Notes: generated from the letters alone by a model not told the origin. Numbered from the stretch's first letter, positions 13,918 to 40,844 are shown. The stretch is DNA of 64,000 nucleotides from an uncultured Gammaproteobacteria bacterium (GCA_965230895.1 OZ246394.1:980668-1044667); one strand, 5' to 3'. Numbers and translations are program-made.

Positions 13918-15129
13918 ATGAACTCAAAAGGTAAAAAAATTCTTCTCGGTGGATTTCTCGTAGTCCTTCTCGTAGGTATTCCACTTACCGTTTATCTTCT
14001 TCAACAGCAGCAGGAAGTTCGAAGTAGAGCAGAAAAGTCTACAATTGTTACCTTCACGCCTGACTCCACACAGGCTGCTCCTATTCAAAAAGCAGTTGGA
14101 GATAGTATCCCGCTTGATATTAATGTTGATCCAGGAAAGAATCTTGTTTCATTCGTAAAGCTTGAAATTAGTTATGATCCTGAAGTCCTCGCAACGTCAT
14201 CAGCAAATGCCTTCCAGGCAAACACAACTGCATTCCCATCAGTTCTTGAAGGACCAGTCTACACACCGGGTAAGATCGCGGTTACTCTTTCTGTAGGGCC
14301 AGATCCGACGAAAGCTATTCAACAAAAAGTGAAAGCAGCGACTTTGACGTTTACAGCTTTAAAGAATACTCCGCCAGGTACACCAACGCTTGTTACATAT
14401 AGTTCCAATACACAAGTTCTTTCTATTGGATCAAATGATCAAGCAAGTGAGAATGTACTTTCAACTGCAACACCAGCTACTATTGAGATTGGTGGAGCAG
14501 CGCCATCTCCTAGCGATCAGCCTATTCCAACTGGCACAGTTGCGCCAACAGTCCCAGTGACAGATGCACCAACGCAAGCACCATTACCTACAGATGTACC
14601 ATTACCTACAGACATTTTGTCTCCAACTCCAACAGGTCCAGTTACAAGTGGTCCACCAAACACAGCACCTGTTTGTAGTACCTTAGTTGCTGATCGTGAA
14701 TTGACTGGCGCTGCACCATTCTCAATCACCTTGACTGCAAACGGAAGTGATACAGACGGCACAATCGGCAAGGTAACATTTAATTTTGGTGACGGACAAC
14801 AAAGTGATGTCACAACATCAGGTGGAATCGGAACCGCTTCTGTAAACGTACAAGCATCACATACATACAACAATCCTGGAACATATCAAGCAACTGCAAT
14901 TTTGACAGATAGTTCTGCTGGAGTAAGTCTGCCAAGTGATACTTGTAAGCAAACTATTACTGTAACTGAAGCAAGTAACAGTGCAAGTCCTGCACCAAAC
15001 ACTGGCGGTGGTAATGTAGTTCTCACTCCAACTATGCCTCCAACAGGAGCAACAGAGACAGCAATCGGCGTTGGCGTCGCAGTCCTTATGCTCATCGTTG
15101 GTGGAGGATTACTCTTCTTCGTCCTCTAA
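13918..15129 (+). CDS. Secreted/surface protein with PKD domain and C-terminal sorting-like signal
   Basis: 403 aa. N-terminal signal/anchor (KKILLGGFLVVLLVGIPLTVYLL) and Pro/Thr-rich linkers. PKD-like domain (VTFNFGDGQQSD...SHTYNNPGTYQATAILTD). C-terminus LTPTMPPTGATE followed by the hydrophobic stretch AIGVGVAVLMLIVGGGLLFFVL. Confidence 0.6.
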   Translation: MNSKGKKILLGGFLVVLLVGIPLTVYLLQQQQEVRSRAEKSTIVTFTPDSTQAAPIQKAVGDSIPLDINVDPGKNLVSFVKLEISYDPEVLATSSANAFQANTTAFPSVLEGPVYTPGKIAVTLSVGPDPTKAIQQKVKAATLTFTALKNTPPGTPTLVTYSSNTQVLSIGSNDQASENVLSTATPATIEIGGAAPSPSDQPIPTGTVAPTVPVTDAPTQAPLPTDVPLPTDILSPTPTGPVTSGPPNTAPVCSTLVADRELTGAAPFSITLTANGSDTDGTIGKVTFNFGDGQQSDVTTSGGIGTASVNVQASHTYNNPGTYQATAILTDSSAGVSLPSDTCKQTITVTEASNSASPAPNTGGGNVVLTPTMPPTGATETAIGVGVAVLMLIVGGGLLFFVL

Positions 15130-29208: not shown

Positions 29209-31056
29209 ATGACCGCATCTGAAATAGTTACAAAATATATTGCATTTTATGAGAAGCGTGGGCACAAAAGAATTGCCAATGCACCAGTTGTCCCACAAAA
29301 TGATCCTACAACCCTTTTTACAAGCTCGGGGATGCAGGCACTTATTCCTTATCTATTGGGAGAAGAACATCCATTGGGGACACGACTTGTAAATGTACAA
29401 AACTGTTTCCGCGCAGTCGATATTGATGAGGTCGGAGATGATCGACATACTACGTTCTTTCGAATGATGGGTAATTGGTCACTTGGAGATTACTTCAAGA
29501 AAGAACAACTTCCTTGGTTCTTCGAATTTCTAACTGACAAGAAAGATGGCTTGGGAATTGATCCTTCAAGATTGTATGTCACTGTTTTTTCTGGCAATGA
29601 CGATATCGAACCAGATACTGAAAGCATTCAATTATGGAAAGATATTTTCAAGAAAGCTGGTATTGATGCAAAAGAAGGCGAACGGATTTTTCCATACGGT
29701 GTTGAAAAGAACTGGTGGTCACGATCAGGAACTCCGGAAAAAATGCCTGCTGGAGAACCAGGTGGACCAGATAGTGAAATGTTTTATGACTTTGGCGCTG
29801 AATTACAACTTCATGAGAACAGTCAATTTAAAGATGAAGCATGCCATGTGAATTGTGATTGCGGCCGATACTGGGAAATTGGAAATAGTGTTTTTATGCA
29901 ATATTTGAAGCAAGATAATGGTGGATTTAAACCTTTGCCAAAGCAAAATGTTGACTTTGGTGGAGGCTTAGAAAGGCTTTTGGGAGCAGCAGAACACAAG
30001 CACGATATGTTTCAAACATCACTTTTTGCTCCAACCATCGCAGCAATTGAGAAAGCAACAGGTGAAGTTTACAGCCAAAACAAAAAGTCTATGCAAATCA
30101 TCGCCGACCATATGGGAGGAAGCTCGTTCATCATCGCTGGTGGAGTACGGCCTGCAAATAAGGAACAAGGCTATATTCTCCGTCGTTTGATCCGAAGAGC
30201 ATATGATCATTTCTCACGACTTGGAGGAAAAGATCTTGCACCGGTTGTCGAAACAGTTGTGGGTCAATACAAAGTAACTGATCCTGAACTTGCACAGAAG
30301 TATGAAGAAATTAAGCTTACAATTTTGGAAGAAGTAAAGAAATATAGTACAGCTTTGAATAAAGCAAAAGGTTATATCGACAAGAAGTATGGCGGGAAAG
30401 AGATAAGTGACGGAATTAAAGAGATTACGCCTGAAGATGTCTTTTACCTTTACTCTTCGCACGGACTCTCCCCTACGCAAGTTGAAAGTCTTGGATATAC
30501 ATTCGATAGACAAAAGTTTGCTGAGCTTATGGAAAAGCATCAGAACCTGAGTAAATCAGGTGCAGGACAAAAATTCCGAGGAGGATTGGCAGATCATCAG
30601 GAGAAAACAGTCATGGGACATACAGCCACTCACCTTTTACATCAGGCGTTGCGTGATATGTTTGGCAAGCAATTGCACCAATCAGGATCAAACATTACAA
30701 CTGAGCGACTTCGTTTTGACTTCAACTTTGACCGGAAACTTACCGATGAGGAAGTACAGAAGCTTGAAGACGTCGTTAATGGAAAGATTAAAGAGAATAT
30801 CCCGGTTCATTTCGAAATGATTCCGACTGAAGAAGCAAAGAAGATTGGCGCAATTGGACTTTTCGAAGATACCTATGCAGACACTTCAAAAATCTATTTT
30901 ATCGGAGGAAGTTCCAAAGATTCTCAGGCTGCATACTCAATCGAATTCTGCGGAGGACCACATGTAGAATTTACAGGAAAGCTAAAATCGTTTAAGATAA
31001 TAAAGCAGGAGAACCTTGGCAATAAAATGCGTCGGGTTTACGCTGTTGTTGGATAA
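29209..31056 (+). CDS. alaS: Alanyl-tRNA synthetase, short form lacking the C-terminal C-Ala domain
   Basis: 615 aa; class II AlaRS catalytic core (FTSSGMQ, VQNCFRAVDIDEVGDDRHTTFFRMMGNWSLGDYFK) and the editing-domain motifs HTATHLLHQAL and CGGPHV; ends soon after the editing domain. An extended -10 (TGcTATAAT, 29189..29197) lies 11 nt upstream of the ATG. Confidence 0.85.
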   Translation: MTASEIVTKYIAFYEKRGHKRIANAPVVPQNDPTTLFTSSGMQALIPYLLGEEHPLGTRLVNVQNCFRAVDIDEVGDDRHTTFFRMMGNWSLGDYFKKEQLPWFFEFLTDKKDGLGIDPSRLYVTVFSGNDDIEPDTESIQLWKDIFKKAGIDAKEGERIFPYGVEKNWWSRSGTPEKMPAGEPGGPDSEMFYDFGAELQLHENSQFKDEACHVNCDCGRYWEIGNSVFMQYLKQDNGGFKPLPKQNVDFGGGLERLLGAAEHKHDMFQTSLFAPTIAAIEKATGEVYSQNKKSMQIIADHMGGSSFIIAGGVRPANKEQGYILRRLIRRAYDHFSRLGGKDLAPVVETVVGQYKVTDPELAQKYEEIKLTILEEVKKYSTALNKAKGYIDKKYGGKEISDGIKEITPEDVFYLYSSHGLSPTQVESLGYTFDRQKFAELMEKHQNLSKSGAGQKFRGGLADHQEKTVMGHTATHLLHQALRDMFGKQLHQSGSNITTERLRFDFNFDRKLTDEEVQKLEDVVNGKIKENIPVHFEMIPTEEAKKIGAIGLFEDTYADTSKIYFIGGSSKDSQAAYSIEFCGGPHVEFTGKLKSFKIIKQENLGNKMRRVYAVVG

Positions 31057-31077: not shown

Positions 31078-33438
31078 ATGAAACTGCCTATCCCTTTTTT
31101 CAATTCTAAATCTGACGACTCCGATTACTATTTAGCCTTGCTACTTACAGAAGATAAAGCAAGCGCGGTTATCCTTAAAGCTACTGAAGATAAGCTTAAA
31201 CCATTAAATACACATTCTGAGTTCTTCCCAGAATCAATTGAACATCTCACCTTAGAAGAAATAATAACTACTGTCGACAAAACCATAAGTCGTGCTGAAG
31301 AGGTTCTGCCTCCTCAGATCGAAACTCATAAAACAGTTTTTGGGGTCAAAGACAAATGGGTCGACCGAGAAACGAAAAAGATAAAGAAAGAATACTTGGA
31401 TAAACTCAAAAAGGTTTGTGATGCACTCGATCTTTCACCAATTGGATTTATGGTCACGACCGAAGCAATCACCCATCTGGTTGAAGATGAAGAAGGAGCA
31501 CCTGTCTCAGCAGTCTTTGCTGAAATTGGAGAAAAACAAATTGTCCTCAGTCTTTTACGCGGTGGTAAAGTCGTTGAGACGATAAGTAGTACCCTCATGC
31601 ATTCTGCTCCCCACACGGTAGATAAGCTTCTCTCCCACTTTACTGTACCTGTTTTGCCTGCTCGAATTATCCTTTATCTTAATAAGCCTGATGAGGATAC
31701 AAACCAAGCATTTATATCGCACCAATGGAGTAAAAGTCTTCCGTTCTTGCATGTTCCGCAAGTGACAGTATTGCCCGCTCATTTTGATACGAGATCACTG
31801 ACGTATGGTGCTGCCACCCAAATGGGATTTACGGTTTCAGAACCTCATCATGAAGCACTTCCGAAATTAACCAAAGAAGAAAAGAAAGAGGAGGAAGCAA
31901 TTGCTGATGAAGTACAGGAACCAGAAAATGAAACTCTAGAAAAGGATTCTGAGCAGATGGAAGAGAATCCATCAGAAGAAAATGAACCTCGAATGGATAA
32001 TATCGCGCCTGTACCAGCAGCTGAAGAGAAATCAGGTGATTTCGGATTTGTTGTAGATGGAGAACCAGTCGCGCAGAAAGCACATCATGAACCAGTAGAA
32101 CACCATGCTGAGGTAGAGCATGAAGCTCATGGGCATACACAACATCATGAAACACATCATCGAGACGATGATGACGATGAGAGACCACGCAAATCCAGCA
32201 ATCTGGCAGACAAAGTACCATTCTTATCCAGTCTTTCTCTTCCAAAGAATGTAAAAATGCCTAATGTCGGAGGGCTCATGAATAGCGTGAGTGGCAAAAA
32301 AGCACCGATTAAGATTATCCTTCCGATCGTAGCGCTCCTCATAATAATCATTGGCACAAGCTTCTATTATATTAATATTGTCAAAGCAACTGTTTCACTT
32401 TCGGTCAAGCCGAATATCGTTAACGAGCAAGCAACCGTAACGTTCTCGAGTGATGAATCAAATAATTTTTCAAGTAATGTCATCGCCGCACGGAGTATTT
32501 CAGCATCAATTCAGTCAGAGATTTCGGGTAATGCTACTGGCAAGAAGGATGTTGGAGAAAAAGCAAAAGGAACCGTAACATTCTTTAATAATGACAATGA
32601 TCCTGTTACTTTAAGTTCAGGTGCAGAAATTCGTGCAAGCAACGGCGAAGTCTTCCTTCTAGATAAAGAAGCAAAGATACCAGCAGCTACAGGAGATATC
32701 TTCACTGGAACAAAACCCGGAAATGCAGATGCTTCAGTCACTGCAAAAGATCTTGGTACTGAAGGTAATGTCCCTTCAGGAACACGCTTTACTGTCGGTT
32801 CAGCAAGTACCCTTGCTGCGAGAAATGACAATGCGTTTTCAGGAGGAACGACCAAGAATGTAACTGTCGTTTCAAAGAGTGACTTGGACAAGCTCCGAAC
32901 AGATATTCTGAAGAAAGGACAAGCTGAAGCACAATCAAAGCTTGCAGAGGAAGCTGAAAGCGGAGAGACAGTGCTTCCTGTCGTCAGTTCACCATCGCTT
33001 GAAAATGCTACCTTCGACAAAAAAGAAGGCGACGAAGCAACGAAGGTCACGTTGAAAGGAAATGTCGTATATCAGGGCTTAGCGTATAGTAATGATGACC
33101 TGAAGGAATATGGATTAACTGTATTAAAGGCGCAGTATGCTGACGATGTCACATTCGATGAAAAAAGTGTAAAGGGATCAGTTGAGGATGTAAGCTTGGA
33201 AGATCCCAAAACAGCAGAGGCAAGTGTGACTGTAGAAGGTGGACAGCTTCCTGAGATGGATACCAATGACATCATCAAAAATGTGAAAGATCAATCACTG
33301 GGACAAGCGAGAGAAACAATTTCAAATCTTCCACAGGTCACGAAAACAGATATTACGTTCTCACCACCGATATTCATTATCCCTGACTTATTCCCTCGAC
33401 TACCAAATCAAATCAATGTCGAGATAAAAACTGAATAA
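31078..33438 (+). CDS. Bitopic membrane protein: N-terminal actin-like (FtsA/PilM-like) cytoplasmic domain, acidic His-rich linker, one TM helix, and a ~370-aa Ser/Thr/Gly-rich extracellular domain
   Basis: 786 aa. The N-terminal 250 aa resemble the actin/FtsA/PilM fold (LALLLTEDKASAVIL; VFAEIGEKQIVLSLLRGGKVVETISS) but with degenerate phosphate-binding loops. His/Asp-rich stretch HHEPVEHHAEVEHEAHGHTQHHETHHRDDDDDE. TM helix IKIILPIVALLIIIIGTSFYYINIV. No LPXTG. The stop lies 7 nt before the sortase gene. Confidence 0.5.
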   Translation: MKLPIPFFNSKSDDSDYYLALLLTEDKASAVILKATEDKLKPLNTHSEFFPESIEHLTLEEIITTVDKTISRAEEVLPPQIETHKTVFGVKDKWVDRETKKIKKEYLDKLKKVCDALDLSPIGFMVTTEAITHLVEDEEGAPVSAVFAEIGEKQIVLSLLRGGKVVETISSTLMHSAPHTVDKLLSHFTVPVLPARIILYLNKPDEDTNQAFISHQWSKSLPFLHVPQVTVLPAHFDTRSLTYGAATQMGFTVSEPHHEALPKLTKEEKKEEEAIADEVQEPENETLEKDSEQMEENPSEENEPRMDNIAPVPAAEEKSGDFGFVVDGEPVAQKAHHEPVEHHAEVEHEAHGHTQHHETHHRDDDDDERPRKSSNLADKVPFLSSLSLPKNVKMPNVGGLMNSVSGKKAPIKIILPIVALLIIIIGTSFYYINIVKATVSLSVKPNIVNEQATVTFSSDESNNFSSNVIAARSISASIQSEISGNATGKKDVGEKAKGTVTFFNNDNDPVTLSSGAEIRASNGEVFLLDKEAKIPAATGDIFTGTKPGNADASVTAKDLGTEGNVPSGTRFTVGSASTLAARNDNAFSGGTTKNVTVVSKSDLDKLRTDILKKGQAEAQSKLAEEAESGETVLPVVSSPSLENATFDKKEGDEATKVTLKGNVVYQGLAYSNDDLKEYGLTVLKAQYADDVTFDEKSVKGSVEDVSLEDPKTAEASVTVEGGQLPEMDTNDIIKNVKDQSLGQARETISNLPQVTKTDITFSPPIFIIPDLFPRLPNQINVEIKTE

Positions 33439-33444
33439 CCTGCC

Positions 33445-34176
33445 ATGAAAACACAAGTGTACAAAAAAGGAAGCCGAAAAGATGTTCGGAAGATAATTCG
33501 TTTTAGTGGATTATTTTCATCGGTCCTCGGACTTATTATCGGGATGTATACATTCTTTCCGCTTATCTCATACGAACTGTATATTAAACCAGCATTTGCA
33601 AGCCAATCTTTTGCTGCACCTATTCCACAAAAGACAATAATCACGCAGGATTATATTCAAAGCTTGTTTAAAAATACTGCAACTTCATTGAGAAATCTTG
33701 GAGCAAATAACTCTCAAGGATGGATGCCGACAACATATCAAGAGATGGAAGTTGCGTCGCAGCTTTCAAATTATTATATTTCTATTCCAAAGCTTGGTAT
33801 AACAAACGCAAATGTTTCAACGATTAGTAATAATGTCGATGAGCATTTGGTCCATTTCCCTGGGACAAACCTACCACCAAACAAAGGCAATGCAGCCATA
33901 TTTGGTCATTCGACATTACCGCAATGGTTTGATCCGACGAACTACAAAGCAATTTTTGCAACCGTCCACACGATGCAAATTGGTGATGCAATTAATGTGA
34001 CGATCAATAATCAGATTTATACTTACAAAGTCATTGATATCTCAATTGTCGATCCTGAACAAGCAAACTATTTTGAGCAAAACGTCGATGGGAGTTATCT
34101 CACAATAGTTACCTGTACTCCACCGGGAACTATCTGGAAACGATTGCTAATAAAGGCTAAACTTGAGACAATATAA
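33445..34176 (+). CDS. Sortase (transpeptidase), N-terminal membrane anchor
   Basis: 243 aa; catalytic His (AIFGHSTLPQ), the active-site Cys in TIVTCTPPGT (TLXTC motif) and a downstream conserved Arg (WKRLL); single N-terminal TM helix. Confidence 0.75.
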   Translation: MKTQVYKKGSRKDVRKIIRFSGLFSSVLGLIIGMYTFFPLISYELYIKPAFASQSFAAPIPQKTIITQDYIQSLFKNTATSLRNLGANNSQGWMPTTYQEMEVASQLSNYYISIPKLGITNANVSTISNNVDEHLVHFPGTNLPPNKGNAAIFGHSTLPQWFDPTNYKAIFATVHTMQIGDAINVTINNQIYTYKVIDISIVDPEQANYFEQNVDGSYLTIVTCTPPGTIWKRLLIKAKLETI

Positions 34177-34194
34177 AAGAAAGGAGGATGACAT

Positions 34195-34347
34195 ATGCAA
34201 GAGAATGTACAACAATCACCGGTAATGATCTTCTTAAAGAAGATATGGCCATATGTGAACCGCGTCATTAATACAGTAATGTATTTTATTATCTCGATGC
34301 TTAAGAATTTTTTCAAAAGTGCCATCCAAATGATCCAAGGTAAATAA
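34195..34347 (+). CDS. Unannotated small hydrophobic protein (50 aa), translationally coupled to the downstream nucleoside phosphorylase gene
   Basis: Perfect SD AAGGAGG 7 nt upstream of the ATG at 34195; sequence MQENVQQSPVMIFLKKIWPYVNRVINTVMYFIISMLKNFFKSAIQMIQGK; the TAA stop overlaps the ATG of the next gene (TAATG at 34345..34349); below the ORF-track cutoff. Confidence 0.45.
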   Translation: MQENVQQSPVMIFLKKIWPYVNRVINTVMYFIISMLKNFFKSAIQMIQGK

Positions 34348-35621
34348 TGACTGAAGAACAACTTGCCCTGCAAGCCATACAAAAAAAACTCGTTGGGAAA
34401 AGACTCAACTACGAAGAAATTTTTGCGGTAATGGATGAAATAAGCCATAATCGCCTTTCACAAGTACTAACAACCTACTTTGCTGCATCTGGTTACTCCA
34501 AAGGATTTTCAAATGAGGAAATGTATTTTCTCACTAAAGCAATGATCGAAACAGGAGAAAAGCTTGAATTTAAAGGTATTGTCGCTGACAAACATTCAAT
34601 AGGAGGCGTACCAGGAACACGAACTACATTGATCGTTACACCAATTGTGGCTGCTGCTGGATTTACAATACCAAAAAGTTCATCCCGCGCAATTACAACT
34701 CCCGGCGGAACTGGTGATGATATGGAAGTTTTAGCACCAGTGACATTTGGTAAAAAAGATATCTATCGAATAGTAGCTGAGACAGGTGCATGTATTGTTT
34801 GGGGAGGTGGAGTTGATATCGCGCCAGCTGATGATGACCTAATACAAGTTGAAGAACCGCTCCTTCTTGAAAGTTTTGATAAAATTCTTGTTTCTATTAT
34901 GGCCAAAAAAGTTGCTTTTGGATCAAATCATATAGTCATTGATGTGCCGTATGGAAAACATGTCAAAGTCCACAATAAAGCTGATGCAATGCTGCTTAAA
35001 CATAAATTCGAATATCTTGCGAAAAGATTTAACGTGAAGCTCAATGTGTATGTCCACGATACACACGAACCATCCGGCCGGGGCATCGGACCGTTACTTG
35101 AAACCAAAGAAGCAATCAAAGTATTAGAGCAACTTCCAGATAGACCACTTGATCTTGAAGAGAAAGGCTTACATCTAGCTGGAATGGTTTTGGACTTATG
35201 CCTTGAAGATTCATCAAAAAAGTTACAAGACAAGATAAAGGAAGAATTTGGAAATGGAAGAAAATGGGCAGAGTATATTCTCTCCAGTAGCCATGCTTTG
35301 AAGAAAATGCGCGAAATTATCAAAGCACAAGGAGGCAACTCTGCTATAATGAGTAAAGATCTACAACCTGGGAAATATCAGTATGAGGTAAAAGCAAAAG
35401 TTGCCGGAGTTGTAAAAGAGATTGATAGCAAAAATGCGACACTTCTTGCAAAGATCTTAGGAGCACCGCAACAGAAAAAAAGCGGTATTTATTTACTAAA
35501 GAAAAGTCGCGAGCATGTAGAAGTTGGTGAAACGACTTTTATAATGTATAGTGAGAAAGAACATAACTTAAATGAAGCAAAGGACTCGTTATCGCACTTC
35601 CCAATATTCGCATACAAATAA
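34347..35621 (+). CDS. Thymidine/pyrimidine-nucleoside phosphorylase family protein
   Basis: 424 aa; N-terminal helical domain and the KHSIGGVPGTRTT phosphate-binding motif (compare DKHSTGGVGDKTS); the length fits thymidine phosphorylase rather than the longer AMP phosphorylase. Confidence 0.8.
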   Translation: MTEEQLALQAIQKKLVGKRLNYEEIFAVMDEISHNRLSQVLTTYFAASGYSKGFSNEEMYFLTKAMIETGEKLEFKGIVADKHSIGGVPGTRTTLIVTPIVAAAGFTIPKSSSRAITTPGGTGDDMEVLAPVTFGKKDIYRIVAETGACIVWGGGVDIAPADDDLIQVEEPLLLESFDKILVSIMAKKVAFGSNHIVIDVPYGKHVKVHNKADAMLLKHKFEYLAKRFNVKLNVYVHDTHEPSGRGIGPLLETKEAIKVLEQLPDRPLDLEEKGLHLAGMVLDLCLEDSSKKLQDKIKEEFGNGRKWAEYILSSSHALKKMREIIKAQGGNSAIMSKDLQPGKYQYEVKAKVAGVVKEIDSKNATLLAKILGAPQQKKSGIYLLKKSREHVEVGETTFIMYSEKEHNLNEAKDSLSHFPIFAYK

Positions 35622-35625
35622 AGGT

Positions 35626-36579
35626 ATGAAAAAATTTTCGTTTCTAATCGTTTTAATAGCTCTTATCGTTGGTGGAATTGGTGCATGGTGGATCAATGGA
35701 ACAGCTCCAGCTGATCCTTCAGATGCAACTACAAAGAATTTTGTAATTAATAAGGGTGAAGGAGTAAGACAAGTTGCAAATAATTTAAAAACCGAGGGTT
35801 TGATCAAAGATCCTATTATCTTTTTTTTATTCCTGAAACAGCAAGGGCTTGATGGCAAAATCCAAGCTGGAGAATTTTCGCTTTCACCTTCAATGAACGC
35901 CTCTGAGGTTGCGAAGGAATTGCAGACTGCCACCAATGATATCACCATAACTGTACCCGAAGGAAAGAGAGCAGAAGAGGTTGCGGATATTTTGCAAGAG
36001 TCACTTCCGGCATACGATGAATCATGGAGACAACAACTTGTTGCTCAGGAAGGATATCTCTTCCCAGATACATATTCATTTCCCAAGGATGCAGATATTG
36101 ATCTAGTAATTACAACAATGCGTGATAATTTCGATAAGAAATACGCAAGCATTCCTGCAGGAAAAAATAGTAATCTTCCACAAACACAGATAGTAACGCT
36201 TGCTTCAATGGTAGAACGAGAAGCAAAGCATGACGAAGACAGACCGATCGTTGCCGGTATTATGCTCAATAGAATTAACGCAGGAATGTCATTGGATATT
36301 GACGCAACGGTGCAATACGCAACTGGTACAGGACGTGATTGGTGGCCAACGCTCAATGATGCGGCAAGAAATATTGCACCAGATTCACCATACAATACAT
36401 ATACACATCCAGGATTACCACCAACTCCAATCTCAAATCCTGGACTAGCAGTACTTCAAGCTGTGATCAATGCACCAGATACAGATTATGTTTTCTATAT
36501 AACTGATAAAACAGGTACAAACCGTTATGCAAAGACCCTGGATGAACATAATAGAAACATTGAAAAATACGGCCTCTAA
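35626..36579 (+). CDS. mltG: Endolytic murein transglycosylase MltG (YceG family)
   Basis: Start moved to the ATG at 35626 (MKKFSFLIVLIALIVGG...); N-terminal TM, LysM-like region and the YceG catalytic region (SMVEREAKHDEDRPIVAGIMLNR...YNTYTHPGLPPTPISNPG). Confidence 0.85.
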   Translation: MKKFSFLIVLIALIVGGIGAWWINGTAPADPSDATTKNFVINKGEGVRQVANNLKTEGLIKDPIIFFLFLKQQGLDGKIQAGEFSLSPSMNASEVAKELQTATNDITITVPEGKRAEEVADILQESLPAYDESWRQQLVAQEGYLFPDTYSFPKDADIDLVITTMRDNFDKKYASIPAGKNSNLPQTQIVTLASMVEREAKHDEDRPIVAGIMLNRINAGMSLDIDATVQYATGTGRDWWPTLNDAARNIAPDSPYNTYTHPGLPPTPISNPGLAVLQAVINAPDTDYVFYITDKTGTNRYAKTLDEHNRNIEKYGL

Positions 36580-37974: not shown

Positions 37975-38604
37975 CTATTTTACGAGGATATTCCTTTGCT
38001 CTACAGTTTCTTTACCAAAACGATTGGTGGCTTTGATGGAAATTGTTGTATTACCAGGGAAGAGTGTCAATCGTTTACTAAATTTTCCATCAGTACTCAC
38101 AGTCACAGGCTGATTATTAACATACACGGTGGCATTATTATCTGCTTTTCCAGAAACAACAATTTCTTTTGCAGTAGTACTATTTGCAACAGGCGTATCA
38201 ACTGTAAGCGACGGCGGAAGAAATGCAGCGCGATATTGGAAAAATAAATAAATGAGAAAAAGAACTAAAGCCGCACCTGCAAGCAAAAGCGATTGCTGAA
38301 AGCGTAGTCTTTGGAGTGGAAATTCTTCCTGTTTCACCAGAGAATCGGGTAAAACCTTATACGCTTTCTTCTCATCAAATTCTCTTTTGAAAAGTGCAGT
38401 GATTTCAGCTTTGGACAGTCCGAGATATATTGCATAATTACGGACAAATCCTTGCGCATACGCGGGAGATGGGAGTTTGTTATATTCTCCTTTTTCAATT
38501 GCAGAAAGAAAAATCGGTTTTATCTTTATTGCCTGAGACACTTCTTCAAGTGTTAATTTCTTTTGTACTCGTAACGTATGTAGCCTTTGTCCTAACTTAA
38601 CCAT
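37975..38604 (-). CDS. RodZ-like protein (XRE-type HTH, TM helix, C-terminal beta domain)
   Basis: 209 aa; N-terminal HTH (LGQRLHTLRVQKKLTLEEVSQAIKIKPIFLSAIEKGEY), a central TM, and a C-terminal DUF4115-like domain. Confidence 0.55.
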   Translation of the reverse strand: MVKLGQRLHTLRVQKKLTLEEVSQAIKIKPIFLSAIEKGEYNKLPSPAYAQGFVRNYAIYLGLSKAEITALFKREFDEKKAYKVLPDSLVKQEEFPLQRLRFQQSLLLAGAALVLFLIYLFFQYRAAFLPPSLTVDTPVANSTTAKEIVVSGKADNNATVYVNNQPVTVSTDGKFSKRLTLFPGNTTISIKATNRFGKETVEQRNILVK

Positions 38605-38690: not shown

Positions 38691-40844
38691 TTATTGTTCT
38701 TGTTGCTGTTGGCCCGAGAGATAATCTTGAGCATTTTGTCGCAAAACCTCACGCGGCTTCGCGCCATCAGCTGGACCGATAATGCCTAGCTCTTCAAGTT
38801 GATCCATCATACGAGCAGCTCTCGCATATCCAACGGACATTTTTCTTTGTAGGAATGACGCTGAAGCAGTATTAAATTGTAAAACAAGATTAATTGCTTC
38901 CTCAATTTGTCCATCCTTACCATCAGACCCTCCAGACGAACCACCTTTTCCGGTTGCACCTTTCATTGGTAGAGGCTGACTAACAATTTCTTCTGTGTAC
39001 TCAACAGGATAGTTCTTTGACTTCAAAAATTCAACTAGCGTTCTTACCTCTTTTTCAGAGACAAACGTTCCCTGGATACGACTTGGCTTCGCTTGGTCAG
39101 GAGGGATGTACAACATGTCTCCCCGACCCAAGAGCTTTTCAGCTCCAATACTATCTATGATAACACGTGAGTCAATCATGGAAGACACGTTAAAAGCGAT
39201 ACGACATGGGATATTTGCTTTGATAAGGCCGGTAATAACATTAACCGATGGGCGCTGTGTAGCAATTACTAAATGAATACCCGTCGCACGAGCCATCTGT
39301 GCTAACCGAGCAATCGCGTCTTCAACTTCAACAGGCGCAAACATCATAAGATCCGCCAATTCGTCAATGAAAATAACAATATATGGCAATGCTTGAAAAC
39401 CCGAAAGTTCATTATAACCATCAATATTTCGGACTCCACGCTCAGCAAATATTTTGTATCTTCTGTCCATCTCATTCATTGCCCATTTCAATGCTGAAAG
39501 AATCTTTGCCGGGTCAACAATAACAGGGGTCAAAAGATGTGGAATACCGTTATACATCGTAAATTCAACTCGCTTTGGATCAATCATAATCATACGAACT
39601 TCTTGTGGAGATGCTCTAAAGAGGATTGATGCGATAAATGCATTACTCAAAACTGACTTACCGGAACCCGTAGTACCAGCAACCAAGCAATGTGGCATCT
39701 TTGCGATATCAACAGCCATTGGATTTCCTGATACATCTAAACCTAGTGCAACAGTTAATTTGGACTTAGCTTTTTGCATCGCGTTAGATGTGAGCATAGA
39801 TCGAAGTGTTACGACTTCGAGGGATCGATTTGGAATTTCTATACCGACAAGATTACGTCCAGGGATTGGAGCTTCAATACGAATTTGTCCTGTTGGAGCT
39901 TCTGTCGCAAGCGCCAAGTCATTGGCAAGTGATGTAATTTTAGAAACTTTTGTACCAAGTGCAATTTCGAGTGCATACTGAGTAACAGCTGGTCCAAGGT
40001 TTGCCTCAGCGACTCTCGTATCAATACCAAAACTCTGCAATGTACTTTCAATAGTTGAGGCAATTTTCTTCACATCTCCACGCTCAGCTTTTTTGCCAGG
40101 ATCTTCAGACAAAAGAGATGGTGAAGGATACTCCCAAACTCCAGGAGCACTTCCGGCAATAATATTACTGACAAGCTTTTCAGGAACCAAATCCTGATCT
40201 TTCTTTGGAGCTGGCGCAGGTGGACGAGAATTTTCCTTCATTGGCGCAATTTTTTCTTCCTCTTCCTCAGCTTTTTGCCCACCTTTAATCTGCAAACCTT
40301 TACCTTGTGCAAGTAGAGGTTTCTCTTTCTTAAACGACGCGAATAATTGCGTTGGAACCAATCTGCCTAAACCATCTTTGATACCAGCAACTGCTTGCAA
40401 TACTTCATCAATAGATGTATCAAAGAATACAAGAATACCAACAAGTAACCCTCCCAAAAAGACAAGATTTGCACCTGCAGGTGTGATTATTTCTTCGAGT
40501 ATTGAATAGATTTCAGCACCGACTGAACCACTCCGCACTAAGCCAACAAGGGAAACAAATACAAGCATATAACCGACGGTAACGTTAAGCTGAGAGAGGT
40601 ATGTCTTTAATCTTAAGAAGAGAAAACCGAAGCAGAATAATGCAAATGGGAAGAGCACTGCAAGTGGACCAAACATTTGTTCAAGCTTTGTACTAGCAAC
40701 GAGTGTTGACTCACTTTTATTAATAAGTGCAAACAAAAAAAGGAGTCCAGCAAGGAAGAATCCAAGACTGAAGATATTATAAACTGTTTTCTTTTTCAGC
40801 TTAAGCTTTAGTGGTTTTTTTCGACTACTACGTTTACCGGGCAT
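38691..40844 (-). CDS. ftsK: DNA translocase FtsK/SpoIIIE
   Basis: 717 aa; N-terminal TM helices, Walker A GTTGSGKSV, Walker B, and a C-terminal gamma (winged-helix) domain. Confidence 0.9.
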   Translation of the reverse strand: MPGKRSSRKKPLKLKLKKKTVYNIFSLGFFLAGLLFLFALINKSESTLVASTKLEQMFGPLAVLFPFALFCFGFLFLRLKTYLSQLNVTVGYMLVFVSLVGLVRSGSVGAEIYSILEEIITPAGANLVFLGGLLVGILVFFDTSIDEVLQAVAGIKDGLGRLVPTQLFASFKKEKPLLAQGKGLQIKGGQKAEEEEEKIAPMKENSRPPAPAPKKDQDLVPEKLVSNIIAGSAPGVWEYPSPSLLSEDPGKKAERGDVKKIASTIESTLQSFGIDTRVAEANLGPAVTQYALEIALGTKVSKITSLANDLALATEAPTGQIRIEAPIPGRNLVGIEIPNRSLEVVTLRSMLTSNAMQKAKSKLTVALGLDVSGNPMAVDIAKMPHCLVAGTTGSGKSVLSNAFIASILFRASPQEVRMIMIDPKRVEFTMYNGIPHLLTPVIVDPAKILSALKWAMNEMDRRYKIFAERGVRNIDGYNELSGFQALPYIVIFIDELADLMMFAPVEVEDAIARLAQMARATGIHLVIATQRPSVNVITGLIKANIPCRIAFNVSSMIDSRVIIDSIGAEKLLGRGDMLYIPPDQAKPSRIQGTFVSEKEVRTLVEFLKSKNYPVEYTEEIVSQPLPMKGATGKGGSSGGSDGKDGQIEEAINLVLQFNTASASFLQRKMSVGYARAARMMDQLEELGIIGPADGAKPREVLRQNAQDYLSGQQQQEQ

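Follow-up and report, generated by a model that had tools for sequence, protein, structure and literature searches.

The locus examined here places a large membrane protein immediately upstream of a sortase, and the question it raises is what this protein (the product of gene X) is and whether it works with its neighbour. No description of it was found in the literature that we searched. According to our analysis, gene X is probably the fused, single-chain form of an envelope module that other lineages of these ultrasmall bacteria, the CPR (Candidate Phyla Radiation, Patescibacteria), encode as two genes, i.e., a wall-facing scaffold for the envelope or for division, to which the sortase was added later.

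Organization of the locus

As the original prediction had it, gene X is one uninterrupted frame rather than two ORFs: since more than 950 homologs of similar length align with it end to end, a hidden stop is excluded. Its N-terminal domain is represented by 1327 clusters at 50% identity. The parts of gene X and its neighbours within the window (the whole stretch of 64,000 nucleotides that was analysed) are given below, with the evidence for each.

29209..31056, + strand: alanyl-tRNA synthetase (AlaRS), context gene; directly 5' of gene X in 71/74 loci
31078..33438, + strand: gene X, bitopic membrane protein, 786 aa; intact ORF, >950 full-length homologs
31078..31119, + strand: gene X N-terminal peptide MKLPxPF, residues 1-14, predicted disordered; conservation, pLDDT
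31120..31842, + strand: gene X reduced actin-like (ASKHA) domain, residues ~15-255; AlphaFold, Foldseek, hhalign, tblastn
31843..32301, + strand: gene X acidic cytoplasmic linker, residues 256-408, variable in sequence; conservation/gap profile, composition
32041..32049, + strand: FGF motif of the linker, residues 322-324; conservation
32314..32373, + strand: gene X single transmembrane helix, residues ~413-432; hydrophobicity, sequence
32383..33435, + strand: gene X extracellular baseplate-J/wedge-like domain, residues 436-786; Pfam, PHROG, Foldseek
32554-32850, + strand: barrel core of the outer domain, residues 493-591; Pfam Baseplate_J
33445..34176, + strand: sortase, 243 aa, with N-terminal membrane anchor; Pfam, TIGR01076
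34195..34347, + strand: conserved 50-aa small protein; 57 distinct orthologous sequences, same position
34347..35621, + strand: thymidine/AMP-phosphorylase homolog, context gene; NF003338 452 bits, conserved position
35572..36579, + strand: YceG/MltG-family protein, context gene; Pfam YceG 2.4e-79, conserved position

The spacer between gene X and the sortase measures 6 nt (TAA cctgcc ATG), and not 7 nt as first reported. Further downstream, the YceG/MltG gene marks the end of a conserved alaS...mltG neighbourhood. Near gene X, the flanks of which are AlaRS, the sortase, YceG and rpoB, no phage or pilus genes were found, and the PADLOC defence models returned zero matches in the neighbourhood.

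Domains of the gene X protein

The N-terminal domain had been read as an actin fold close to FtsA and PilM with degenerate nucleotide-binding loops, and both points hold. Its AlphaFold model (pLDDT 85.5, pTM 0.80) shows the order three strands, helix, strand, helix, strand, helix twice over, i.e., two RNase-H-like halves, which make up the whole of its ~240 residues, the 1C and 2B inserts being absent. When searched against the PDB with Foldseek, the domain yields 577 matches at E<=0.001; PilM, Ppx/GppA, FtsA, EutJ and CoaX head the list, and the top ones are PilM chains (E 5e-10, with a moderate TM of 0.57) and not FtsA. Secondary-structure order and PDB matches thus both place it in the ASKHA, or actin-like ATPase, fold.

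Family models are silent on this domain: no actin-type Pfam or NCBIfam model matches gene X, the FtsA models (TIGR01174, PF14450, PF02491) match neither gene X nor any of 47 members of its family, and PilM_2, TIGR01175 and the GspL models do not match gene X. Comparison of profiles with hhalign nevertheless relates the domain to a CPR family of FtsA-like proteins (probability 93.7%, E 1.9e-7), by pairing gene X residues 106-234 with FtsA-like residues 189-366 and leaving the 2B region as a gap; this sequence-level alignment covers the second half of the domain, and the first half is linked by its fold only. Likewise, tblastn searches with FtsA-like proteins hit X genes in the N-terminal domain only (best E 7e-8). 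In the hhalign alignment, DIGGGTTD (phosphate 2) is replaced by AEIGEKQI and CGGGS (adenosine) by LYLNK in gene X, the first hairpin of which reads LLLTEDK, without the DxG of phosphate 1. Judging from these motifs, the domain would no longer bind ATP. Compared with FtsA, gene X thus lacks intact nucleotide motifs. Subdomains 1C and 2B are missing from it as well, and in place of the amphipathic helix at the C-terminus of FtsA it has a true membrane helix. Ahead of the domain, residues 1-14 are modelled with pLDDT <50, and M1, L3 and P4 are nearly invariant among the 47 diverse members.

The linker that follows had been described as acidic and His-rich. Its acidity (25% D/E, net charge -21) is a family trait (median 22% D/E in 119 homologs), but its histidines (8.5%) are particular to this genome, the family ranging from 0 to 16% with a median of 3.9%. 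Within this variable region, two residues do not change among the 47 members (27-51% identity), G323 and F324, and F322 and D329 are almost as constant. The FGF motif survives as VGF or LGF in the remotest members (P0349, P0351); we regard it as a candidate short binding motif. The single membrane helix that had been predicted (IILPIVALLIIIIGTSFYYI) is preceded by KKAPIK and, as gene X has no signal peptide, the N-terminus lies inside and the C-terminus outside the cell.

The outer part, supposed to be rich in Ser, Thr and Gly, is indeed moderately so (26%), but it is well folded (AlphaFold pLDDT 88) and not of low complexity. Pfam Baseplate_J (PF04865) matches residues 493-591 with 22.9 bits (cut-off 21.1) and is recovered at E<=0.01 in 43/47 members (best 3.4e-9); the GlxA barrel is hit in 7/47. 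PHROG_6, a baseplate wedge family, matches the outer domain at 1e-6. Against the PDB, Foldseek retrieves baseplate chains of phages Mu, XM1, A-1(L), Bas63 and Pa193, and nearly all the named proteins among the 24 matches at E<=0.001 in a viral structure library are baseplate J/wedge proteins; relatives of gene X bear the NCBI name 'baseplate J/gp47 family protein'. This agreement between Pfam, PHROG_6 and two Foldseek libraries supports the identification of the outer region as a folded baseplate-J/wedge-like domain. Its last strand belongs to the predicted fold, and no tail resembling a sorting signal was found at the C-terminus of gene X, which bears out the expectation that gene X is no sortase substrate of the classical type.

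Split and fused forms, and the sortase

Among the other CPR loci sampled, labelled Berkelbacteria, Moranbacteria and Parcubacteria, plus three further CPR loci (L091, L094, L095, L096, L097 and L098 altogether), a ~420-aa FtsA-like gene lies directly 5' of a J-like gene in all six. Four of them read alaS–ftsA-like–J-like–ruvX–mltG; one gene intervenes after AlaRS in L097 and L098, and RuvX and then EF-G follow the pair in L091. The FtsA-like protein has its DIGT, DIGGGTTD and CGGGS motifs intact and an amphipathic C-terminal tail; it matches Pfam FtsA at 4e-19 and scores 126 bits against TIGR01174 (under the 176-bit cut-off) and 35 bits against pilM. NCBI and IMG label it 'cell division FtsA domain-containing protein' or 'FtsA'. 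Its J-like partner is a bitopic membrane protein, in which a single membrane helix stands between a small head in the cytoplasm and an outer domain resembling phage baseplate J/wedge proteins. By sequence comparison, the outer domains of the fused and split forms are orthologous, and the motifs ATGKKxVGxKAxGT, YN.P and GG.tK.v.vv are common to both; the head bears a faint, non-significant resemblance to gene X residues 107-145.

The adjacency of the two genes in six out of six loci identifies gene X as the fused form of this pair, found in Levybacteria and their close Microgenomates relatives. The most economical history is that the two neighbouring genes fused, even though a tandem duplicate of the ftsA-like gene, or an older origin of the N-terminal domain, is also possible.

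The gene after gene X does encode a bona fide sortase, as had been announced: it passes both Pfam Sortase (PF04203; 3e-20, 72.6 bits, cut-off 26.6) and TIGR01076 (55.6 bits, cut-off 39.35), it has the catalytic His, Cys (TLxTC-type) and Arg, its motifs FGHST, TCTPPGT and WKRL are >=90% conserved in 66 orthologs, and its best PDB match is 4d70 (2e-13). All class-specific NCBIfam models for sortases A-F remain far below their cut-offs, the best being class C (63 vs 160 bits). Just outside its membrane anchor stands a conserved P-AFA-sQ motif, which is AXA-like.

The micro-ORF reported after the sortase is likewise genuine. It starts 7 nt after a Shine-Dalgarno sequence (AAAGGAGG), its stop codon TAA shares one base with the ATG of the gene that follows (TAATG), and 57 distinct orthologous sequences are known, located directly after the sortase, with the consensus ..IWPxxYRxxNxxxYF....IK.....A..QIKG. 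The best 19-residue hydropathy has a median of 1.37, borderline for a membrane helix, and the segment is strongly amphipathic. Its position recalls SafA of Actinobacteria, encoded by a small conserved gene immediately downstream of a sortase, which protects the AXA-type anchor of that sortase from signal peptidase (PMC9282373); here too, the sortase has a signal-peptide-like anchor with an AXA-type motif (AFA). SafA has one membrane helix, preceded by PGP and closely followed by FPW (PMC9282373), whereas our small protein has IWP ahead of its hydrophobic stretch, and neither a clear membrane helix of that type nor the PGP and FPW signatures were found in it. Moreover, it is kept in one locus without the sortase (L076).

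At face value, the arrangement might mean that gene X positions or regulates the adjacent sortase, or serves as an acceptor or organiser for anchored surface proteins, thereby coupling a cytoplasmic platform to anchoring. The pairing is tight: wherever there is room to see it, the sortase immediately follows the fused gene in 72/73 loci, the commonest junction being an 8-nt overlap (30 loci), and this adjacency persists across three downstream contexts, i.e., small protein–phosphorylase–YceG, RuvX (L092) and another (L093). A sortase family is reported as almost universal in Microgenomates and patchy in other CPR (PMC6744442), a range that matches that of the fused form, and the window also encodes a candidate substrate, the C-terminal signal of which is of the PPTG type. 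However, the sortase is not a core part of the module: none was found in any of the six split-type loci, where the FtsA-like and J-like genes do without it, and at the single exception among fused loci (L076), gene X and the small protein are present while the sortase is missing. Gene X itself carries no sorting signal. In addition, AlaRS on the 5' side and the phosphorylase homolog downstream (45/50 loci long enough to show it) are just as fixed, and thus synteny alone is no proof that gene X works with the sortase. We consequently hold a sortase platform to be possible but do not favour it. The linkage between gene X and the sortase may reflect lineage history, but its near-universal and usually overlapping character could mean more than that.

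Comparison with known systems and proposed role

A fusion of this kind paired with a sortase had been presented as an undescribed module, but the layout of the fusion is a known design: an actin-like domain, a membrane helix and an outside domain are joined in the same way in GspL and distributed over two proteins in PilM+PilN, where the actin-fold domain binds a bitopic membrane protein. The parallel extends to the split and fused states, with PilM+PilN and GspL on one side, the FtsA-like and J-like pair and gene X on the other. That gene X might be an alignment component of a pilus or secretion machine, of the PilM–PilN or GspL type, also agrees with its best PDB matches to PilM and with the wide occurrence of type IV pili in CPR (PMC6744442). 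We nonetheless consider it improbable, as none of the 47 members matches PilM_2 or GspL, the nearest sequence family is FtsA-like (see the scores of the split partner against ftsA and pilM), the outer domain is J-like instead of adopting the ferredoxin-like fold of PilN and GspL, and pilB, pilC, pilN, pilO and pilin genes, like secretion genes, are absent from every neighbourhood seen.

The barrel core of gene X matches wedge J, Mu gp47 and T4 gp6 (PF04865) in sequence, and the outer domain aligns with them in 3Di over ~350 columns, with low global TM-scores (~0.23) indicating that the arrangement of domains differs. The Pfam, PHROG_6 and structural matches could also be taken to point to a baseplate gene left over from a decayed prophage or tailocin and fused by chance to a host gene. 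This is very improbable and largely refuted by gene context, considering that no tail, wedge, hub, sheath or other baseplate genes were found around gene X or at any of the related loci, that the family numbers more than 1300 clusters with identity down to 26-27% in a fixed position within a housekeeping block, that the domain lies beyond a membrane helix on the outer side of the cell, unlike the site of baseplate assembly, and that base composition is flat across the region.

Actin-family proteins working with a bitopic membrane partner are familiar from FtsA–FtsN and MreB–RodZ, and the gene X module follows the same logic, with an N-terminal domain homologous to the CPR family for which ftsA models give the highest scores; its partner domain, in contrast, is unrelated to FtsN, FtsQ/DivIB or RodZ. 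The cytoplasmic domain of GspL, for its part, is an actin-like scaffold that is not known to bind ATP. The architecture, homologies, split and fused states and synteny of gene X come directly from the data; for its function, our best guess, based on architecture and neighbourhood, is a non-catalytic transmembrane scaffold of the envelope or of division.

Under this preferred reading of gene X as a fused envelope module, the actin-like part would have shed its 1C and 2B inserts, its phosphate-binding and adenosine motifs and its membrane-targeting tail in the fused form, where the tail is dispensable, the domain being held at the membrane by the helix. Without ATP turnover, the cytoplasmic domain would act as a docking or oligomerisation platform, like that of GspL, with the MKLPxPF and FGF peptides as putative partner- or self-binding motifs, and the membrane helix would join this platform to the wall-facing J-like domain, which probably oligomerises. 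The whole protein would then be a transmembrane scaffold for cell-envelope growth or division, as suggested by the ancestral site of the module inside the alaS–ruvX–mltG neighbourhood and by the FtsA-family nature of its partner. The sortase and the 50-aa protein would have joined in the Microgenomates lineage and may use the scaffold, the module existing without them.

More tentatively, these genes could belong to a CPR-wide and so far undescribed transmembrane machine, a lineage-specific apparatus for division, envelope growth or host contact. It would combine an FtsA-family protein with an extracellular wedge-like domain that either came from phage baseplate wedges or is common to them and the CPR; Levybacteria would have fused the pair and recruited a sortase and a SafA-like helper.

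For now, known biochemistry is unchanged, and gene X is a well-defined lead and not a demonstrated system. With a conserved small protein following an AXA-anchored sortase, the SafA principle may extend to bacteria other than Actinobacteria. The CPR account for a large share of bacterial diversity and, to our knowledge, their cell biology is almost unknown. Adjacent in several named CPR groups, an FtsA-family protein and a wedge-like membrane protein offer a concrete candidate, open to testing, for a component of the division or envelope machinery that is particular to the CPR; if true, this would be a clear case of a phage wedge fold doing housekeeping work at the cell surface.

Gene X, its family and its surroundings

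The original prediction had read, directly upstream of a sortase, one gene that fuses an actin-like domain, a membrane helix and an extracellular domain. Gene X is indeed a single uninterrupted ORF of 786 aa, with full-length relatives, and it sits in the following arrangement.

Features of the window discussed in the text (position, strand, description)
13918-15129, +, secreted cohesin–PKD protein, 403 aa: cohesin, Pro/Thr-rich linker, PKD
29209-31056, +, alanyl-tRNA synthetase (AlaRS, gene alaS), 615 aa, upstream of gene X with a 21-nt spacer
31078-33438, +, gene X, 786 aa, one unbroken ORF
31843-32301, +, linker of gene X, with the His-rich run HHEPVEHHAEVEHEAHGHTQHHETHH
33445-34176, +, sortase, 243 aa, beginning after a 6-nt gap from the end of gene X
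33445-33640, N-terminus of the sortase: membrane anchor, then the conserved FFPLISWQxYxxPAFAsQxxxPIP
34195-34347, +, 50-aa ORF (the small protein), downstream of the sortase
34347-35621, +, thymidine/AMP-phosphorylase homolog, 424 aa
35572-36579, +, YceG/MltG-family gene, next past the phosphorylase homolog
37975-38604, -, RodZ-like protein (HTH_25, membrane helix, glucodextranase-B-like outer domain), adjacent to the next feature
38691-40844, -, FtsK homolog

Base composition is flat across the gene X region, promoter and terminator scans gave chance-level results, with no intergenic terminator found between alaS and yceG, and the PADLOC defence models yielded no relevant match. The synthetase is short, its counterparts in the CPR loci fetched for comparison measuring 565-638 aa; bacterial alanyl-tRNA synthetases are usually roughly 870 aa long. 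The phosphorylase homolog, also 424 aa in the related locus L007, aligns to positions 90-485 of a 502-position archaeal-type model, and thus the N-terminal ~85 residues of the family are missing. The RodZ-like/FtsK pair recurs in the remote locus L092 (L092:451-2438), there too upstream of alaS–X–sortase, which indicates that the envelope and division genes of the region travel together.

A word-indexed search returned more than 950 full-length relatives of gene X (43-100% identity), all 750-810 aa long, and an exhaustive profile search with the N-terminal domain collected 1327 representative clusters at 50% identity; among the complete proteins of the best 150 of these 1327 clusters, the domain is always N-terminal and the total length is the same as in gene X. 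Conservation is uneven, i.e., high over residues 1-255, low in the variable, gap-rich linker (256-408) and moderate after the membrane helix. Among 47 members that share 27-51% identity with the window protein, the N-terminal motif MKLPxPF stands out and, within the FGF motif of the linker, G323 and F324 are invariant. The linker had been described as acidic and His-rich: its acidity is a family trait (median of 22% D/E across 119 homologs), whereas its His content, 8.5% in the window protein, varies from 0 to 16% across the same homologs (median of 3.9%), the run HHEPVEHHAEVEHEAHGHTQHHETHH being limited to this genome and a few relatives. A His-rich metal-binding linker is therefore rejected as a family trait. 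Some public genome bins carrying a Levybacteria-type gene X bear the names Gammaproteobacteria, Methylomirabilota, Sulfotelmatobacter, Xanthomonadales or Limnocylindrales, probably through wrong taxonomic labelling of the deposited records.

Neither Pfam nor NCBIfam gave an actin-type match for gene X, and searches of PDB sequences, whether with the full protein or with a profile of the N-terminal domain, returned chance-level matches only. The actin fold postulated for this domain nevertheless emerges from a confident AlphaFold model (pLDDT 85.5, pTM 0.80, with 21 homologs as input), in which the succession of three strands, helix, strand, helix, strand, helix occurs twice, as in actin-like (ASKHA) folds; extra subdomains are absent from the model.

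On the other side of the membrane, the domain first described as Ser/Thr/Gly-rich contains only 26% of these residues and instead folds confidently (pLDDT 88) into a baseplate-wedge-like structure. The Pfam Baseplate_J match (residues 493-591) is slightly over the cut-off in the window protein, and 43 of the 47 diverse members match this model, the related GlxA barrel being matched as well by 7 of the 47. PHROG_6 (“baseplate wedge subunit”) also matches the outer domain (1e-6). In Foldseek comparisons with the PDB, the leading structures are baseplate chains of phages Mu, XM1, A-1(L), Bas63 and Pa193, along with the GlxA barrel, and a viral structure library gave 24 matches at E<=0.001, of which the named ones are nearly all baseplate J or wedge proteins. 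Global TM-scores are low (~0.23), rigid similarity being confined to the barrel and the domain arrangement being different. Since gene X lacks a signal peptide and has a single membrane helix, the outer domain faces outward: the protein is bitopic, the N-terminus lying inside the cell and the C-terminus outside. A prophage remnant is rejected as an explanation of gene X, its neighbourhood being made of housekeeping genes.

A split FtsA-like/J-like pair in other CPR

The most remote matches of the homolog search have only the outer domain in common with gene X. One of them, P0352 (558 aa), represents a family of proteins of 530-680 aa assigned by their sources to Berkelbacteria, Moranbacteria, Parcubacteria or “Patescibacteria group”. 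These J-like proteins, i.e., resembling the phage baseplate-J/wedge protein, consist of a conserved cytoplasmic head of ~80 aa (consensus YLExDEEITSV...NLKLLKK), without match in Pfam or the PDB, followed by a linker, one membrane helix and the outer domain, which has the motifs ATGKKxVGxKAxGT, YN.P and GG.tK.v.vv in common with that of gene X. In six of six such loci, a ~420-aa FtsA-like gene lies directly 5' of the J-like gene.

Coordinates of the FtsA-like/J-like pair in the split-type loci
L091:5723-8677
L094:3720-6656
L095:3734-6962
L096:3618-6986
L097:3589-6644
L098:3699-7043

The FtsA-like protein matches Pfam FtsA (4e-19), while its best NCBIfam score is to TIGR01174 ftsA, at 108-126 bits (below the 176-bit cut-off). 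It retains the canonical DIGT, DIGGGTTD and CGGGS motifs, as well as a C-terminal amphipathic stretch, and is named “cell division FtsA domain-containing protein” or “cell division protein FtsA” in NCBI/IMG. Five aligned copies (L091 and L094-L097), including ones labelled Berkelbacteria, Moranbacteria and Parcubacteria, show 56-63% identity to the L091 copy. AlaRS is found upstream of the FtsA-like gene in four of the six loci, either adjacent (L091, L094) or with one gene between (L097, L098), and in the same four loci RuvX lies 3' of the J-like gene, followed by YceG in three and by EF-G in L091. In L094, mreB and mreC are also close to the pair. Neither the family nor the pair was described in the literature that we searched for CPR together with sortase, baseplate J, actin-like, PilM, FtsA or divisome.

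Profile-to-profile comparison relates the N-terminal domain of gene X to the FtsA-like family (probability 93.7%, E 1.9e-7), by pairing residues 106-234 of gene X with FtsA-like residues 189-366; the FtsA 2B region corresponds to a gap, and the stretch W..lPF...P.V is common to both. This alignment also bears out the degenerate nucleotide-binding loops of the original prediction, with AEIGEKQI opposite DIGGGTTD and LYLNK opposite CGGGS. When FtsA-like proteins were searched by tblastn against all comparison loci, matches fell only within gene X N-terminal domains (best E 7e-8). In the window itself, each of five FtsA-like queries has its strongest, non-significant match in that same region, the other matches being at chance level. 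The inner domain of gene X is an FtsA-derived pseudo-enzyme domain, and gene X is the fused form of the conserved FtsA-like/J-like pair of Berkelbacteria-, Moranbacteria- and Parcubacteria-labelled loci and of other CPR. The J-like domain lies outside, the module exists in split and fused states, and the neighbourhood is a housekeeping one.

The simplest history leads from alaS–ftsA-like–J-like to alaS–[ftsA-like::J-like] in the Levybacteria lineage. The fusion would have entailed the loss of the 1C and 2B inserts, the nucleotide motifs, the amphipathic tail and the small head domain. The N-terminal domain of gene X might also have come from a duplicated ftsA-like gene, which is a possible source. 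The split head bears a faint, non-significant and unexplained resemblance to residues 107-145 of gene X.

The sortase, its candidate substrate and the small protein

A metagenome scan provided 80 loci, which, with others fetched, amounted to 73 distinct fused-type loci having at least 400 nt downstream of gene X. The sortase comes next in 72 of them, the commonest junction being an 8-nt overlap (30 loci); AlaRS is directly 5' of gene X in 71 of 74 loci, and the phosphorylase homolog lies downstream in 45 of the 50 sufficiently long ones. AlaRS–X–sortase is kept at 26-27% identity despite differing downstream genes (e.g., in L090, L092 and L093), RuvX lying downstream in L092, with YceG further along. 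Coupling this close is consistent with a functional link, yet it is improbable that gene X is the dedicated partner of the adjacent sortase: the core FtsA-like/J-like pair occurs without it, as no sortase was found in any of the six split-type loci examined, one fused-type locus (L076:901-4588) passes directly from gene X to the small protein and the phosphorylase homolog, and functionally unrelated genes are just as fixed in the block.

The sortase itself is genuine, as first recognized, even if it fits no class-specific model. After its membrane anchor, the AFA of P-AFA-sQ, retained by most of 66 orthologs, constitutes a signal-peptidase motif of the AXA type. A sortase family is reported to be present in almost all Microgenomates and to be patchily distributed in the rest of the CPR (PMC6744442), a distribution that agrees with the range of the fused form. 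Gene X is rejected as a substrate, in line with the original prediction, because it lacks a sorting signal. In contrast, the C-terminus of the cohesin–PKD protein reads ...TPTMPPTGATE and continues into a hydrophobic tail (TAIGVGVAVLMLIVGGGLLFFVL) without basic residues, making it a plausible non-canonical (PPTG) substrate; a search for LPXTG-type tails that covered the window and ~0.9 Mb of related loci gave no other candidate.

The SD-driven micro-ORF noted 3' of the sortase is a real gene: AAAGGAGG lies 7 nt before its ATG, its TAA has one base in common with the ATG of the phosphorylase homolog, and 57 distinct orthologs (~38-63 aa), whose consensus is ..IWPxxYRxxNxxxYF....IK.....A..QIKG, are located at the equivalent place. 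The actinobacterial SafA (52 aa), whose gene lies just 3' of srtA, protects an AXA-type site against the signal peptidase LepB2 (PMC9282373). The parallel with SafA is positional only: the motifs of the small protein, which is amphipathic, are not those of SafA, its hydropathy is marginal for a membrane helix, and the likeness is further weakened by L076, where the small protein occurs without a sortase.

Proposed function of the gene X protein

The closest design is that of PilM+PilN versus GspL, which likewise exist as split and fused forms. This is an analogy of design and not family membership, since gene X matches neither the PilM nor the GspL model, has no pilus genes nearby and carries a different outer fold. 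Overall, the observation made in the original prediction stands and its interpretation does so in part; what is gained is the recognition of gene X as the fused form of a conserved CPR FtsA-like/J-like pair. Its inside domain may serve as a docking or oligomerisation platform instead of an ATPase, with the MKLPxPF and FGF peptides as putative binding motifs. The gene X protein would then be a transmembrane scaffold in envelope growth or division, both because its partner in other CPR is an FtsA-family protein and because the ancestral site of the module adjoins ruvX and mltG and, in L094, is also close to mreB and mreC.
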